A stretch of 64,000 nt of DNA from a virus (lineage: Duplodnaviria > Heunggongvirae > Uroviricota > Caudoviricetes). Position numbers and translations under genes: made by a program. The stretch lies in IMG/VR virus record IMGVR_UViG_3300029982_000015; one strand, 5' to 3'. The notes beneath the pieces were generated by a model that was not told the origin of the DNA, made no database searches, and worked only from the letters and a program-made list of their open reading frames with translations. Shown here one piece after another: positions 1,730 to 46,880 of this stretch; position 1 is the first letter of the stretch; each line of letters begins with the position of its first letter.

Positions 1730-1760
1730 GTATCCAAAAACGAAGGTTCGCAGGTATACT
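1730..1760 (+). promoter_or_regulatory. reiterated phage promoter (GTATCCAAAAAC ... GGTATACT); ATG 6 nt after the -10 box, so likely leaderless
   Basis: Motif shared with 15 other sites; TATACT at 1755-1760, ATG at 1767. Confidence 0.55.
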
Positions 1761-1766
1761 AACGGT

Positions 1767-2738
1767 ATGGCTATTAAGAAATCCGCTCCCGATGCCGCCG
1801 CTGTCGCCGCCCTCTCCGCTCAACTCATGGGACAGACCGCCGCGAAGCCGAAACTGAGTACCGCCCCCACCGAGAAGAAGTTCGCTGACCGTGCCAATTG
1901 GACGGGCGTCCTAACATTCGGTCTGGTGACGTTGGGTATCAAAACGTTCAAAGCTACCGACGAAGAGAAGGTCTCCTTCAATCGCGTTTACGTTACCAAC
2001 CCTGAGGAAGTCACGAAGGGTGCGGCACCCAAGTACGCCCAGTTGAAGCAGGGTGGCATGGTTGACGCCGAGAATAAGGCAATCGCTGCCGACTTGATTC
2101 TGTCAGGCTACAAGGTCACCGAAGATGAGTTTGTTGTCATCTCCGATGAGGAGAAGAAGTCCTGCATGGTCGGCTCCGACAAGCGAATGGAGATTGTCGA
2201 GTTTGTCAAGGTCAGCGAAATCGACCCCATCTACTTCGCCTCCGCCGAATACGTCGCAGCCGACAAGGGCTTCGACAAGCCGTTCGACCTGCTCCGGCGT
2301 GGTATGATTGCCCGTGGTGTGGTCGCCATCGCCAAGTCCAATCAACGTGGCCGCGAACAGACTCTGATTCTCCGCCCCTACGGCAAGAATGGCATCACCG
2401 CTCACTACATGTACTTCGACAATGAAGTCCGTGATTTCGACAAGTGGGCGACGACTACCCTCAATGACAAGGAAGTCGAAATCGCCGGGATGCTCATCGA
2501 CGCCCTGACGGACACCTTCGACCCCACTGAGTACAGCGATGGTTACATCCGCACCCTCAAGGGTCTCGTCAATGACAAGATTGAAGGTAAGGTGACGGCT
2601 CTCACAGCACCCATTGCTGCCCCGGTCGCCGACCCCAAGACGGACATCATGAGTGTTCTGGCTGCTTCGCTGAACGCCCCTGCTGTAACCGCCAAGAAGG
2701 CGAAGAAAGCCGCAAAGGCGAAGGCCGCAGCAGCTTAA
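1767..2738 (+). CDS. ku: Ku-family DNA end-binding protein with Lys/Ala-rich C-terminal tail
   Basis: N-terminal NWTGVLTFGLVTLGIKTFKAT matches the bacterial Ku core signature (WKGxISFGLVxIPVKLY); C-terminal KKAKKAAKAKAAAA tail as in mycobacterial Ku. Confidence 0.7.
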   Translation: MAIKKSAPDAAAVAALSAQLMGQTAAKPKLSTAPTEKKFADRANWTGVLTFGLVTLGIKTFKATDEEKVSFNRVYVTNPEEVTKGAAPKYAQLKQGGMVDAENKAIAADLILSGYKVTEDEFVVISDEEKKSCMVGSDKRMEIVEFVKVSEIDPIYFASAEYVAADKGFDKPFDLLRRGMIARGVVAIAKSNQRGREQTLILRPYGKNGITAHYMYFDNEVRDFDKWATTTLNDKEVEIAGMLIDALTDTFDPTEYSDGYIRTLKGLVNDKIEGKVTALTAPIAAPVADPKTDIMSVLAASLNAPAVTAKKAKKAAKAKAAAA

Positions 2739-3025
2739 CCCGAGACGGGCCTGAGGCCGGGGCCGACAAGCCCCGGCAAGGTTCGCATAGGAGACCTATG
2801 TTTAACGTGATGGCACGGGTGGAAGGGAAGCTGCTTTGGCGTCCTTTTGGAGCCATTGATGAAGCCAAACAAGTGGTTGACCCATTGCAACGGAGCCTGT
2901 CCATTACACCAACTTCAATGACGCATTAGAGGCTATTCACGCCACACATTGAGGAGGATGGTCATGTTGACCATTACCCTTATCACACTTTGCAACACAG
3001 TCAATTGGAAATAAGGAGAATCATC

Positions 3026-3508
3026 GTGGCAACTTCGAAGCATGTAGCGGGGTTTGGGCTTTTTGCGTTTCTGACCGGATTAGCCTTGGGTGCCTTCGCA
3101 ACCAAGCGGGAAGATGACGACCTCTTTGGTGGTGTCGTCGGCTATTCTGGGTGCGCGTGTTGCAATAAGGAGGATGAGGCTGTCGATGAATTGGACGACA
3201 CGCCCAAGACCACCACCCTCATCGACAGCCTCGAAGACATTGAAGTACCGGGCGACAAGGCTGACCTGTTGAAAGTCCGCGTACTCGGTCTGGAACGCGC
3301 AAAACTGGTCGCCATGTGGGGCTCCAAGGGTGTGAATCATGACCAGCCGACCGTGTTTCAGCGGTTGAACGACCTGACCCCGGAGCATCTGGTCAACATC
3401 AAGAACAACAGTCTGGCCGTGACCGAAGATGAGCGGCGTATCATCACCAGCATCCTTGAAGACCGCGTTGCCTCGGGAGAAGTTGACCCCGATGTACTCG
3501 GTGTCTAA
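3026..3508 (+). CDS. membrane-anchored hypothetical protein
   Basis: AAGGAG SD 7 nt before GTG 3026; N-terminal TM helix GFGLFAFLTGLALGAF; the ORF-track TTG start at 2990 is less likely. Confidence 0.4.
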   Translation: MATSKHVAGFGLFAFLTGLALGAFATKREDDDLFGGVVGYSGCACCNKEDEAVDELDDTPKTTTLIDSLEDIEVPGDKADLLKVRVLGLERAKLVAMWGSKGVNHDQPTVFQRLNDLTPEHLVNIKNNSLAVTEDERRIITSILEDRVASGEVDPDVLGV

Positions 3509-3688
3509 CCCCACCCGGTAGGCAGTGTCATTAGGCACTGCCCATGGAGATGCAAATGAGATTCATGTTTCCAGCCGACGCGCTGAATCCGAGAAAGATT
3601 GACGAATACTTCAAGCCTCAGGCTGAGGTACTTGCGCCCGAGGGCTACGCGCTATTCTCCATGGAGAACAAAACGGATTTGGCATAAT

Positions 3689-3967
3689 ATGGCAATCATC
3701 ACGATATGCGAATGCGGACTGGCGAAGTGCTATCACGAGAATCACAACCCTCTTGCCTATCGCTATCAAGACGGCAAGGTACACTGTGGCGGGTACACTC
3801 CCCGGCTCCTCCCGTTTGGTCAGAGTGCGAAGGATGAACTCGAACTCTACAAGATAGCTCTTGAAATGGCTGCACGTGAGGTTATTAACCCCGAAGGCAC
3901 GTTCGGTGAGCAAGTGAAACGCAACGAGAAAAAGGAACGCTGGCTGCAACGAGCCCGGAGCTATTAG
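3689..3967 (+). CDS. small Cys/His-containing hypothetical protein
   Basis: ATG 3689 in frame with ORF 3599..3967; ICECGLAKCYHENH and HCGG motifs. Confidence 0.35.
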   Translation: MAIITICECGLAKCYHENHNPLAYRYQDGKVHCGGYTPRLLPFGQSAKDELELYKIALEMAAREVINPEGTFGEQVKRNEKKERWLQRARSY

Positions 3968-4101
3968 AATGACGATGGTACCCGCCGATAACTTCTGTGC
4001 AACGATCCACGCCAATATTGACAATGAGGGATTGACAGATGCTCAGTTCCGCGAGTTCGTTCGCAACACGCTACCTATCGTAGAATACAAAAGACCGAAG
4101 A

Positions 4102-4608
4102 ATGGCAGTGAGAAGAGAGTGGAACATGGCCTTTGAGAAAAGCAATCCCGAGAAGCGTATCTACTGTGTAGTTGCACAGACTGTGCAGACATTTACAACT
4201 GAGGTCGCAACCAAGTCCCACCTTGCACTGCGTTCAACGGAGAGTACCCGAACTGTGGTTCAACCAGCCGGTCGGCTCATCGCTCAGGCTGCTCACGTAA
4301 TCAGCAAGGTGCGGATTGAGATGCTGGTCAACACCCTCATCATTGAGCGTAAGCCCAAAAACCTACTCCCGGCCTACTCCTTTGAGCCGATAACCACCAT
4401 CATCCTCAGCGCCCGTGATAGCTATGAGTTGTATCACGTGCTCAACCTGTTGAATAAAGCAAGACTGAGCGTACACAGTTTCTACGACTTCAACCAGCCG
4501 GATTATGGCAGTCCGACATGCGAAGTCATGACATCCATCGCAACAGAGCCCGTAGACCCGGCTGAGGTTCTAGGTATCCTTGACTACCTTCCATTGTGGA
4601 AGCCTTAG
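4102..4608 (+). CDS. peptidyl-tRNA hydrolase, PTH2 (archaeal/eukaryotic-type) family
   Basis: GRLIAQAAHVISKV matches the PTH2 GKIAAQCxHA motif; C-terminal block resembles PTH2; start could instead be ATG 4126. Confidence 0.5.
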   Translation: MAVRREWNMAFEKSNPEKRIYCVVAQTVQTFTTEVATKSHLALRSTESTRTVVQPAGRLIAQAAHVISKVRIEMLVNTLIIERKPKNLLPAYSFEPITTIILSARDSYELYHVLNLLNKARLSVHSFYDFNQPDYGSPTCEVMTSIATEPVDPAEVLGILDYLPLWKP

Positions 4609-45736: not shown

Positions 45737-45752
45737 GAAAGGACACAGGATT

Positions 45753-46199
45753 ATGGGTCGGTTCTATGAAACACACGAAGACCGTCTTGAGGCTGAACTG
45801 AAGTATGAAATCTCTGTCCGTGACCTAGTTCCGGCGGGGCACTGGTGGTTCGCAGGATGGACAAACTGGTTCGACGCCCCACCTCCGGCCAATGTCGAGG
45901 TCGAGTACATGTATACCGATGGACGCCGGTTTGGTATCAAAGTGTTTGAAGACCCGGCGAACACATGGTACTCCCCAGTTGCCTCTTGGTGGTGGCGTAT
46001 CCCGCCTATCGGCCTGTACTACAACCCTGACAACATGCCGCTGAAAACCTTCGTGCTGGTACGTGCCGACCTCGGACCACACTTCGCTACCGAGATGTGG
46101 GAACAGGCTCGCCGTCGCATGGAATGGGCACCGACTCCACTGCCCTACAACTCCGCTCTGGCTCGTATTCAACGTGGAGAACTGGTGCCGTTGCAATGA
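45753..46199 (+). CDS. Trp-rich hypothetical protein
   Basis: 148-aa ORF. Confidence 0.45.
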   Translation: MGRFYETHEDRLEAELKYEISVRDLVPAGHWWFAGWTNWFDAPPPANVEVEYMYTDGRRFGIKVFEDPANTWYSPVASWWWRIPPIGLYYNPDNMPLKTFVLVRADLGPHFATEMWEQARRRMEWAPTPLPYNSALARIQRGELVPLQ

Positions 46200-46229
46200 G
46201 GTTGCTTAACACCTTTAAGTTGAGACAAG

Positions 46230-46427
46230 ATGATTCGGAACATGGTTAACTTCCCTTTCCCTCAAGTCTGTGTCCACAATGTGGCCGGGAGTTTACTATC
46301 CATGCTGGAAGAGTACGGGGGCACCGATAATCTACCTCCTGAGGAACTGAAAGCGTTAGCCAGAGCCATCGTTAGGGCTGAGGACGATGAGTCGTATCGA
46401 ATACTCACAGCCATCATTGGAGAATAA
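46230..46427 (+). CDS. hypothetical protein
   Basis: 65-aa ORF. Confidence 0.35.
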   Translation: MIRNMVNFPFPQVCVHNVAGSLLSMLEEYGGTDNLPPEELKALARAIVRAEDDESYRILTAIIGE

Positions 46428-46428
46428 C

Positions 46429-46605
46429 ATGCCAAATTCCTTTAGTCAGCGTCTCGAACTCGCCAAGAACATTCCAGCCAAGGTGCAGGAATTTCTGCAC
46501 TCTTTGAACCGTCGCGAAGCCAGTGAACTATGGGATTGGCTGGACGCTGCCGGTACCGATGGTGGCCGTCTTCTCCAACATTTTGTCGAAAGGAAAATTA
46601 TCTGA
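46429..46605 (+). CDS. small hypothetical protein
   Basis: ATG 46429 immediately after the upstream stop. Confidence 0.35.
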   Translation: MPNSFSQRLELAKNIPAKVQEFLHSLNRREASELWDWLDAAGTDGGRLLQHFVERKII

Positions 46606-46849
46606 TGCTGACATCGCACATGCAGATGTACGGTATGCGGCAATGAGGAGCTTTGTAAGCAGGAGTCTTGCGAAAGCCGCCCGGTCGCTTGGTTTTCATG
46701 GGCCGACAAGGCCCGGTGTAAGGCCCATGAAATACAAACTGAACCACCCGTCTGGCTGGATGTCTGGGAATTGCCAGAGAAACATCCACACTTCATGCAC
46801 TAGCTTGGCATGTGAATGTGACTGCCATGGAAAAATTATTCCGAAAAAA

Positions 46850-46880
46850 GTAGCCAAAAAACCTACGAGTTCGGTATACT
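46850..46880 (+). promoter_or_regulatory. reiterated phage promoter; leaderless
   Basis: GTAGCCAAAAAACC...TCGGTATACT; ATG 46887 is 6 nt after the box. Confidence 0.55.

Follow-up and report, generated by a model that had tools for sequence, protein, structure and literature searches.

A conserved family of predicted early-type promoter elements, many fused to start codons, in an uncultured jumbo-phage clade

The viral DNA analysed here is a stretch of 64,000 nt (hereafter the window, on which all coordinates are based) from the Caudoviricetes record IMGVR_UViG_3300029982_000015, and between 1.7 and 46.9 kb it carries a recurrent element of ~50 bp, present as 14 gapless copies, 2 variants and 1 decayed half-site. 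These elements are best read as a phage early-type promoter regulon, which as a kind belongs to known biology; what is new is the presence of such a regulon in this uncultured clade, and the unusually high share of its promoters that would give leaderless mRNAs. We propose that the copies act as strong promoters belonging to a single temporal class, most probably the early (prereplicative) one, and are read by the multisubunit RNA polymerase (RNAP) of the host with a sigma70-family sigma factor and most likely by the host primary sigma alone, an account to which we give about an even chance.

A recurrent element between co-oriented genes

The initial annotation of this DNA had described a promoter of ~35 bp recurring at least 16 times, and this observation of a conserved element is confirmed. 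The element is evident by eye in the 70 nt 5' of the start codons listed there, and when the first T of the hexamer TATACT is set as position -12, 14 copies anchored on that hexamer align without a single gap to the consensus AAAaatTT.c..AAAaACTAgCCAAAAcc-(9 variable)-tCGGTATACTA. A position weight matrix (PWM) of 49 columns built from this alignment matched the window 15 times (the 14 canonical copies and the decayed one), always on the + strand and with scores of 30-60 bits, against a maximum of 13.4 bits over 50 shuffles. No match was found on the - strand or past 46.9 kb within the window, and no copy in the ~10 kb to the right of the window either; the 27 kb that follow the last copy are devoid of the element and hold large unannotated proteins. 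One further copy lies just left of the window, ahead of an rIIA-like gene. Scanned separately, the upstream and downstream halves of the element proved to be strictly coupled and confined to the + strand.

Individual parts of the element behave differently when counted alone. The window has 12 occurrences of the string GGTATACT where chance predicts 0.77, with 11 of the 12 on the + strand, and CCAAAAC by itself shows no enrichment there. The 16-mer AAAAACTAGCCAAAAC taken alone mostly matches coding KKLAKT in unrelated phages; among its matches, a -10 element at the fixed distance was found in family members only. Every full copy sits in a gap between + strand open reading frames (ORFs) and is co-oriented with them, and the decayed half-site at 9431-9479 is the sole intragenic occurrence. 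With no copy on the - strand and this one half-site inside a gene, the motif is not equally frequent in coding DNA and on both strands.

The element opens with an A/T tract at about -57 to -38, in which A+T reaches 80% compared with 49% for the window. At a 2-bp offset the tract matches the Escherichia coli UP-element consensus AAAWWTWTTTTNNAAAA, reportedly due to Estrem et al. in 1998, at a mean of 11.5 of 15 positions, the background being 4.4 +/- 1.7. The tract is followed by a box, ACTAgCCAAAAC (-38 to -27), with the core CTAnCCAAAAC at -37 to -27, in which T-36, A-35, C-33 and A-31 are invariant. A variable spacer of 9-10 bp separates the box from the downstream block; the initial annotation had given a spacer of 11-13 nt, which we revise, the distance from the end of the box to TATACT being fixed at 14 nt (12 nt to GG). 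The -10 itself reads TATACT in 14 copies and TACTAT in one, with G-14 invariant in the window and G-13 nearly so, and A-11 and T-7 are kept in every variant seen in the window and in relatives (TATACT, TATTAT, TATAAT, TACTAT). At the sequence level, position -1 is a pyrimidine in all 15 copies compared and +1 a purine in 14 of them. An independent scan for the sigma70 consensus returned TAGCCA-18-TATACT (9/12) at seven canonical copies, TAGCCA at 18 bp from the -10 being a 4/6 match to TTGACA; taken together, generic sites of sigma70-like type show no enrichment in the window.

A few of the copies first listed need qualification (Table 1). The one before 37317 is real and keeps the canonical register (22 nt from GCCAAAC to the -10), its -10 at 37305 being the divergent TACTAT. 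The copy before 17959 is related and atypical, with its box 10 nt nearer to the -10, and the copy assigned to gene 18605 is present with its -10 at 18517, followed by a mini-ORF and an 82-nt leader. The 22-mer described as identical in two copies is indeed shared, at 8569-8590 (rather than 8570-8591, one base off) and 27789-27810.

Pfam and PHROG scans covered roughly 25 window proteins and, through Pfam, bore out the gene identities previously proposed for the block behind these elements, namely Ku, major vault protein (MVP), PARP, CCA/poly(A) polymerase and helicase-methyltransferase; the remaining ORFs of the block are small and unannotated. Genes of this kind make up prereplicative or accessory regions, and the suggestion that the element defines a regulon is supported in the sense of a promoter family of co-oriented accessory or prereplicative genes.

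Start codons, leaders and relatives

The ATG stands exactly 6 nt past the -10 at 1767, 11063, 18529 (the mini-ORF), 27811, 28191, 33341, 44309 and 46887, and also at 37317. Such spacing had been claimed for seven genes and additionally for 44309, and a distance check upheld all eight positions. Counted per copy, an ATG occupies +1 in 8 of 15 window copies and in 10 of 28 copies from relatives, always as ATG and never as GTG or TTG, and it is kept in the orthologues compared (loci L043 and L045). The proposal that about half of the copies give leaderless mRNAs is thus strongly backed by their predicted geometry. Leaderless transcripts were reportedly described by Sevostyanova et al. in 2007 for the Thermus phage phiYS40.

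Six copies carry 10-40-nt leaders that open almost at once with a Shine-Dalgarno (SD) sequence of the GGAG or GGGAGAG type. Among SD-led copies (8592-8601 in the window, and others in L043, L051, L061 and L155), a near-identical mini-leader GGGAGAGAA(G/A)A follows right after +1 and precedes non-homologous genes, so that this translation signal appears to belong to the conserved cassette. About 13% of genes are predicted to be leaderless in Acidobacteria (PMC3160421). As in leaderless genes of Actinobacteria, Deinococcus-Thermus and Acidobacteria, a TANNNT -10 stands here ~6-7 nt before the start codon, the ATG coincides with the (here predicted) transcription start site, and such genes occur alongside SD-led ones (PMC3160421, PMC12340547). 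Unlike in those genes, the -10 lies within a ~50-bp conserved phage element, and the leaderless share amounts to ~50% of the promoter class.

Two copies stand ahead of unusual predicted transcripts. The leader of gene 18605 (18529-18604, +; structured, 82 nt) opens with a leaderless mini-ORF of 10 codons, MLIVSFGWVV, and contains an 8-bp long-range complement (GGTAGTTT / AAACTACC); because of these two features it may be an attenuator or riboregulator. The copy with its -10 at 27424 heads a stretch of ~310 nt (27436..27745, +) without any ORF of more than 44 codons, the longest being 32-44 codons and one of them Cys-rich, which ends in a strong intrinsic terminator (a 13-bp G+C hairpin at 27713-27743). 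In this stretch there is no Rfam family and the folding z-score is -1.5; it is predicted to yield a non-coding or micro-peptide transcript.

A pattern scan of IMG/VR returned 82 loci, ~20 of them with the whole element including the A/T tract. Contigs of 332 and 463 kb carry CT(A/G)GCCAAAAC-N12-GGTATACT-N6-ATG without the tract. The loci L043 and L045 are syntenic with parts of the window at 70-79% identity, and the footprint of three or four orthologous promoters outlines the element: sequence upstream of about -57 cannot be aligned, the spacer and positions -6 to -1 vary, and the conserved blocks are the A/T tract, the box, GGTATACT and the +1 ATG. Many metagenomic contigs, including one of 310 kb (ENA ERZ27249201 k141_1013972), encode proteins identical to those of the window, and a megablast of 7 kb against INPHARED phages gave no match. 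The phage is present in peat or soil samples, namely JGI samples 3300029922, 3300029915 and 3300037278 and the ENA assemblies ERZ27249201 and ERZ27248709. The nearest cultured relative is the Tunturiibacter phage Tunturi_5, the sole cultured-phage tblastn match (52% identity) of a 246-aa window protein that is discussed below. Tunturi_5 is a jumbo myovirus of 308,711 bp that infects Tunturiibacter psychrotolerans, an acidobacterium of the Acidobacteriaceae (PMC11924767).

A scan of GTDB gave one convincing match, L146, a contig of 182 kb in a Terracidiphilus metagenome-assembled genome that is homologous to the viral contig L104. In the region 4677-5056 (-) it bears one copy of the element, with a spacer identical to that of L104. 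The copy stands ahead of a conserved operon whose products are a 108-aa protein, its GTG start 5 nt past the -10, then a phosphatase-like protein and finally a serine recombinase, and a ParB-like gene is nearby; the contig could be a plasmid, a phage-plasmid or a mis-binned phage. The relationship to Tunturi_5, the Terracidiphilus contig match and the ~13% of leaderless genes in Acidobacteria agree in pointing to an acidobacterium as the probable host of the window phage.

Candidate readers of the element

If the element is read by the host enzyme, sigma region 2/3 would recognise GG (-14/-13) and TATACT (-12 to -7), the alpha C-terminal domains would use the A/T tract at -57 to -38 as an UP element, and the box CTAnCCAAAAC (-37 to -27) would occupy the -35 position (TAGCCA, 18-bp spacer). 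The first transcribed nucleotide would be the purine found 7 nt past the -10; for roughly half of the copies this purine would be the A of the ATG, giving a leaderless mRNA translated from its 5'-terminal AUG, and most other copies would produce a leader of 10-40 nt opening with a GGAG-type SD. Each copy heads a small gene cassette in a hypervariable block composed of rIIA/B, Ku, MVP, PARP, the CCA enzyme, RNA ligase, the helicase-methylase with Cas12 and a clustered regularly interspaced short palindromic repeats (CRISPR) array, and many small ORFs.

We favour host core RNAP with a sigma70-type -10 because of the TAnnnT variants, G-14, the -1 pyrimidine and +1 purine, the UP-like tract, the bipartite structure and the lack of a phage RNAP in the window or in the Tunturi_5 annotation; that the variant -10s keep A-11 and T-7 is as expected for region 2 of a sigma70-family factor. 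Host sigma acting alone is suggested by the fit of the box in position and spacing, its 4/6 match to TTGACA, the drift of distant relatives toward canonical hexamers (e.g. TGGACA...TATAAT in L007) and an architecture like that of T4 early promoters, and also because some promoter class must be readable at time zero. An early timing is suggested by the extra copy before rIIA, by genes of accessory or takeover type, by the lack of copies over the 27 kb past the last one, and by the T4 precedent.

In T4, the -35 consensus of early promoters deviates consistently from TTGACA, and to our knowledge leaderless mRNAs are not a feature of this phage. Its early promoters are 'uber' promoters (UP/-35/TGn/-10) with extra consensus regions, read by the unmodified host sigma70 holoenzyme (PMC2988021). 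As in the window, T4 has dozens of co-oriented, information-rich early promoters, set in a hyperplastic block where rII is found among small and accessory genes, each promoter combining an UP-like A/T tract, an element at the -35 position, an extended -10, a -10 and extra consensus regions. The sequences differ, with CTAnCCAAAAC at an 18-bp spacer, GG instead of TGn and TATACT here; about half of the predicted window mRNAs are leaderless, and the probable host is an acidobacterium.

Several findings weigh against host sigma alone. Position -34, the equivalent of the G in TTGACA, is the sole variable position of the box (G in 8, T in 4 and A in 3 copies) between invariant neighbours, and conservation runs on to -27, unlike in a textbook -35. 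Among 185,579 GTDB species, no genome has more than one match to the motif, and the 20 matches found are about what chance would give; this speaks against the element as a host-genome consensus and argues that the box is lineage-specific. The window motif is also absent from Tunturi_5, where there is no GGTATACT and no matrix match, and k-mer enrichment in the intergenic regions of that genome (PP885688.1) yielded instead two other conserved families laid out as in the window. Finally, Tunturi_3, which shares its host genus with Tunturi_5 and is unrelated to it, shows canonical TTGACA-N16/17-TATAAT/TATACT promoters, so that the host primary sigma probably prefers TTGACA over TAGCCA.

The two Tunturi_5 families, here classes B and C (the window element being class A), share with the window element an A/T tract, a box in the -35 region, a -10-like element and, in many copies, an ATG 5-6 nt later, and differ from it entirely in the sequences of box and -10. 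Class B, with about 52 copies, reads A/T tract - caATAtTCaggg - spacer - TGGGTATTAg (full-form elements ...ATATTCAGGG...TGGGTATTAG), with the ATG 5-6 nt on in many. It precedes replication, nucleotide-metabolism and tRNA genes as well as the genes for the gp3 sigma and the homologue of the 246-aa window protein, and in a third of its copies an inverted repeat flanks a -10-like loop. Class C, with about 31 copies, reads A/T tract - CCAAAGTCATCTTTGG (the palindrome CCAAAG-TCAT-CTTTGG) - spacer - tGTAGGTTGa (full form CCAAAGTCATCTTTGG...GTAGGTTGA), with the ATG 5 nt on in many, and stands mostly ahead of small unknown genes. Matrices for classes B and C found no match in the window, and that for class C none in related loci either. 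By eye, the late structural genes of Tunturi_5 seem to carry a third, CCTTTATAGA-like motif. Because Tunturi_5 lacks the window motif and has classes B and C instead, phages of this clade would seem to use several sequence-distinct promoter classes with lineage-specific boxes. The paper describing Tunturi_5 says nothing of these two families, nor of promoters, sigma factors or leaderless mRNAs in general (PMC11924767).

These findings fit better with a phage-specified factor, either a phage sigma or a MotA/AsiA-like activator replacing the -35 contact, that would read the box CTAnCCAAAAC on host core RNAP while region 2 of a sigma70-family factor reads the -10. Such a factor, to which we assign a considerable though minority probability, would either arrive in the cell together with the injected DNA or be expressed from a few host-type promoters that escaped recognition here, and the regulon would be 'middle' or a private early class. 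It would account for a box of 11-12 bp that is nearly invariant, extends past the -35 hexamer and varies exactly at the canonical G, for the lineage specificity of the box alongside classes B and C of like layout, for the result of the GTDB scan, and for the canonical TTGACA promoters of Tunturi_3. The clade moreover encodes several sigma-like proteins: gp3 and gp211 of Tunturi_5 are annotated as sigma factors, next to an antiterminator, and the 246-aa window protein is sigma4/Q-like. T4 middle promoters follow a similar logic, pairing a sigma70 -10 with a phage-specific MotA box 12 +/- 1 bp upstream and centred at -30, where a -35 should be, through appropriation of sigma by AsiA and MotA (PMC2988021). 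Compared with these, however, the window box has its centre near -32 and stands 14 bp from the hexamer, and MotA boxes are far less conserved than it is; in its high information content and strong UP-like tract, the window element is closer to the early than to the middle promoters of T4. Neither MotA nor AsiA had a Pfam or PHROG match among the roughly 25 window proteins scanned. The window and ~10 kb to its left show no other recognisable promoter class from which a factor could be expressed first, and the drift of distant relatives to canonical hexamers likewise speaks for host sigma.

The initial annotation had pointed to a sigma-like gene at 53345-54085 (-) as a possible reader, a suggestion that fared poorly. 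Its 246-aa product contains two sigma-region-4-like helix-turn-helix (HTH) segments, and the gene is the most conserved of the region, with hundreds of close homologues at 60-90% identity on contigs of up to about 460 kb. The protein on its own has no Pfam, PHROG, PADLOC or PDB sequence match; among 23 homologues, 15 gave a weak match to Sigma70_r4_2 and 22 a weak match to Phage_antitermQ. Its AlphaFold model is mediocre (predicted local distance difference test score of 64) and the top Foldseek hits are region-4 domains of extracytoplasmic function (ECF) sigma factors at non-significant E-values, for which sigma4/Q-like HTH protein seems a fair label. Both HTH helices are nearly identical in gp346, the homologue in Tunturi_5 (annotated there as 'exonuclease'), and the gene lies on the other strand behind a different 110-nt upstream region (within 54086-54250) that is ~80% conserved between relatives and contains a GGGTATTAG-like sequence (GGGTATTAG in L045) resembling the -10 of class B. 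Because the HTH is unchanged in a genome that lacks the motif, and because the gene has this different upstream region of its own, the protein is probably not the reader of the window element; more likely, it governs a promoter class that the two phages have in common. The upstream region is preceded by a terminator at 54202-54230 that is bidirectional. The 336-aa neighbour in the window was considered as a homologue of the Tunturi_5 gp3 sigma and is not homologous to it.

The box could also be an operator overlapping a host-sigma promoter, that is, the site of a phage regulator that would silence (or activate) all its promoters together at a given time. The box is conserved beyond the positions that sigma contacts, the class C box of Tunturi_5 is a perfect palindrome (CCAAAG-N4-CTTTGG) typical of the site of a dimeric regulator, and motif-defined early or anti-defence regulons are known in viruses (PMC11065993). 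The class A box, however, is not palindromic, with CTAG alone self-complementary, and we consider an operator improbable, although it would be compatible with reading by host sigma and does not exclude it.

A phage-encoded RNAP, which the initial annotation had also allowed for, is very unlikely, be it T7-like single-subunit, N4-like virion or phiKZ-like multisubunit. Very high sequence conservation is typical of phage-RNAP promoters, and many jumbo phages carry their own RNAPs. Yet the layout here is bipartite, with a variable spacer of 9-10 bp and variable positions -6 to +5 instead of one contiguous block of ~20-23 bp through +1, and it includes both an A/T tract resembling an UP element and a TAnnnT -10 that has variants of the sigma70 type. 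There is no consistent hairpin of the N4 type at the start site (folding of -32 to +13 gave a mean z of -1.25, with z < -2 in 29% of copies), and no RNAP domain was found in the scanned window proteins, nor is any RNAP subunit annotated in the complete Tunturi_5 genome.

Least probable of all is that the copies are recombination or mobility repeats, such as T4 promoter early stem-loop (PeSL)-like cassettes or miniature inverted-repeat transposable elements, instead of promoters: element-headed cassettes do differ between relatives (37.3-44.25 kb, with the helicase-methylase, the Cas12-like gene and the CRISPR array, is missing in L043, its right edge just upstream of the copy with its -10 at 44297) and one pair of copies shares the 22-mer, but the copies are strictly phased to start codons and a purine at +1, are never inverted and lack terminal repeats. 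A PeSL or terminator-promoter cassette was rejected, a convincing upstream hairpin being present in 3 of 16 copies only (though one L043 indel boundary does fall just upstream of a copy), as were promoter subfamilies spread by duplication, since spacer sharing does not significantly exceed the column-shuffle control (10 close pairs vs 5.0 expected, maximum 13).

Whichever factor reads it, the motif makes it possible to recognise by sequence the early or accessory regulon in a clade of soil jumbo phages that is widespread and has hardly been studied (with contigs of up to about 460 kb). The genes of this regulon include Ku, MVP, PARP, the Cas12-CRISPR unit and many unknowns with plausible host-takeover or anti-defence functions. 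It also predicts unusually frequent leaderless translation in a phage, for which the Tunturi_5/Tunturiibacter pair offers analogous but different families, and it could provide compact strong promoters for Acidobacteriota genetic tools, of which few exist. Should the box be read by a phage factor, this would be a new case of promoter-specificity takeover. We tentatively raise the broader, rather doubtful possibility that jumbo phages of Acidobacteriota run 'private' promoter codes on the host polymerase, in which a box in the -35 region peculiar to each lineage is read by a co-evolving, possibly injected phage factor together with a generic sigma70-type -10, many promoters being fused to the start codon. 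If so, the early proteome would be made from leaderless mRNAs, through a compact expression system that is orthogonal both to the promoters of the host and to initiation by way of an SD.

Features of the promoter block

Table 1. Copies of the element and annotated genes in the window. The -10 column gives the position of its first nucleotide; scores are those of the 49-column PWM.
Feature	Position (strand)	-10	Start codon and leader	Score (bits)	Particulars
rIIB	start 413				Pfam/PHROGs
Promoter copy	1710..1767 (+)	1755	leaderless, +1 = A of Ku-gene ATG	45.9	
Ku	start 1767				Pfam
MVP-like	start 4721				Pfam
Promoter copy	8534..8591 (+)	8579	ATG 8602, 10-nt leader GGGAGAGAAGA	57.6	ATG at distance 17
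Decayed half-site	9431..9479 (+)			29.7 (upstream half 29.0)	A/T tract + box, GGTACGGC in place of -10; inside ORF 9183-9503
Promoter copy	9941..9998 (+)	9986	ATG 10030, 32-nt leader	47.6	sigma70 scan TAGCCA-18-TATACT
Promoter copy	11006..11063 (+)	11051	leaderless ATG 11063	53.6	
Atypical relative	17889..17946 (+)		ATG 17959, SD-led	upstream half 21.1	sigma70 scan TTGCAA-18-TATACT
Promoter copy	18472..18529 (+)	18517	+1 ATG of 10-codon mini-ORF	37.4	
RNA ligase-HNH	start 19318				Pfam/PHROGs
ClpB-like AAA	start 23988				Pfam/PHROGs
TnpB	start 25692				Pfam/PHROGs
Promoter copy	27020..27077 (+)	27065	ATG 27097, 20-nt SD leader	52.3	
Promoter copy	27379..27436 (+)	27424		52.4	no protein gene downstream
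Promoter copy	27754..27811 (+)	27799	leaderless ATG 27811	56.8	22-mer in common with 8579 copy
Promoter copy	28134..28191 (+)	28179	leaderless ATG of PARP-like gene	55.7	
PARP-like	start 28191				Pfam
Promoter copy GATATACT	32054..32111 (+)	32099	ATG 32122, 11-nt leader GGAGGATTTAC	60.5	
Promoter copy	33284..33341 (+)	33329	leaderless ATG of CCA-adding/poly(A) polymerase gene	50.5	orthologous copy in L043
CCA/poly(A) polymerase	start 33341				Pfam
Divergent copy	37260..37317 (+)	37305 (TACTAT)	leaderless ATG of helicase-methyltransferase gene		heads cassette absent from L043
Helicase-methyltransferase	start 37317				Pfam
Promoter copy	44252..44309 (+)	44297	leaderless ATG 44309	56.1	orthologues in L043 and L045
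Promoter copy	45417..45474 (+)	45462	ATG 45488, 14-nt SD leader	49.0	orthologues in L043 and L045
Promoter copy	46830..46887 (+)	46875	leaderless ATG 46887	57.3	orthologues in L043 and L045; last in window

Several genes of the block deserve mention in their own right. The MVP-like gene (4721-7276, +) encodes a protein of 851 aa with a major-vault-protein shoulder and repeat domains, which is unusual for a phage; the gene shares a co-oriented block with the Ku gene, from which it is downstream, and lacks its own copy of the promoter. Within the promoter-driven block, 25692-26900 (+) is a TnpB / IS605 OrfB-like gene with a Cas12f1-like TNB domain, and no tnpA was seen. An ORF of 856 aa (40743-43313, +) matched Cas12f / Cas12u1 in PADLOC weakly and at its C-terminal part only (E about 1e-5), had no sequence match in PDB, and has a candidate promoter of its own, TTGACG-17-TAGAAT, at 40652. 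It is followed, in a unit spanning 40743-44187 (+), by a CRISPR array in which a 36-bp repeat (CCTGTAGACTTACTGGATTTGAAGGCTGAATCCAAC) recurs 13 times between spacers of 30 nt; toward the 3' end the repeats are degenerate and the spacers truncated. No anti-repeat or tracrRNA for this unit was found in the window, and its spacers had no target among the sequences compared.

Rfam found no family on the whole window, L146 and L104, and ARAGORN found no tRNA. A CTAAAT-type late motif before - strand genes was spotted by eye, with counts that are not convincing. To the left of the window and upstream of rIIA, positions 1-7500 of L155 hold no copy of the element in those 7.5 kb; they carry genes for a class I tRNA-synthetase-like protein and for a peptidase of M24 type (methionine-aminopeptidase family). 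Lastly, the ORF at 32622-33080 contains a perfect 24-bp tandem duplication (AATTTTTGGCTTGGCCGTCAATCT x2) at 32699-32747 (+).

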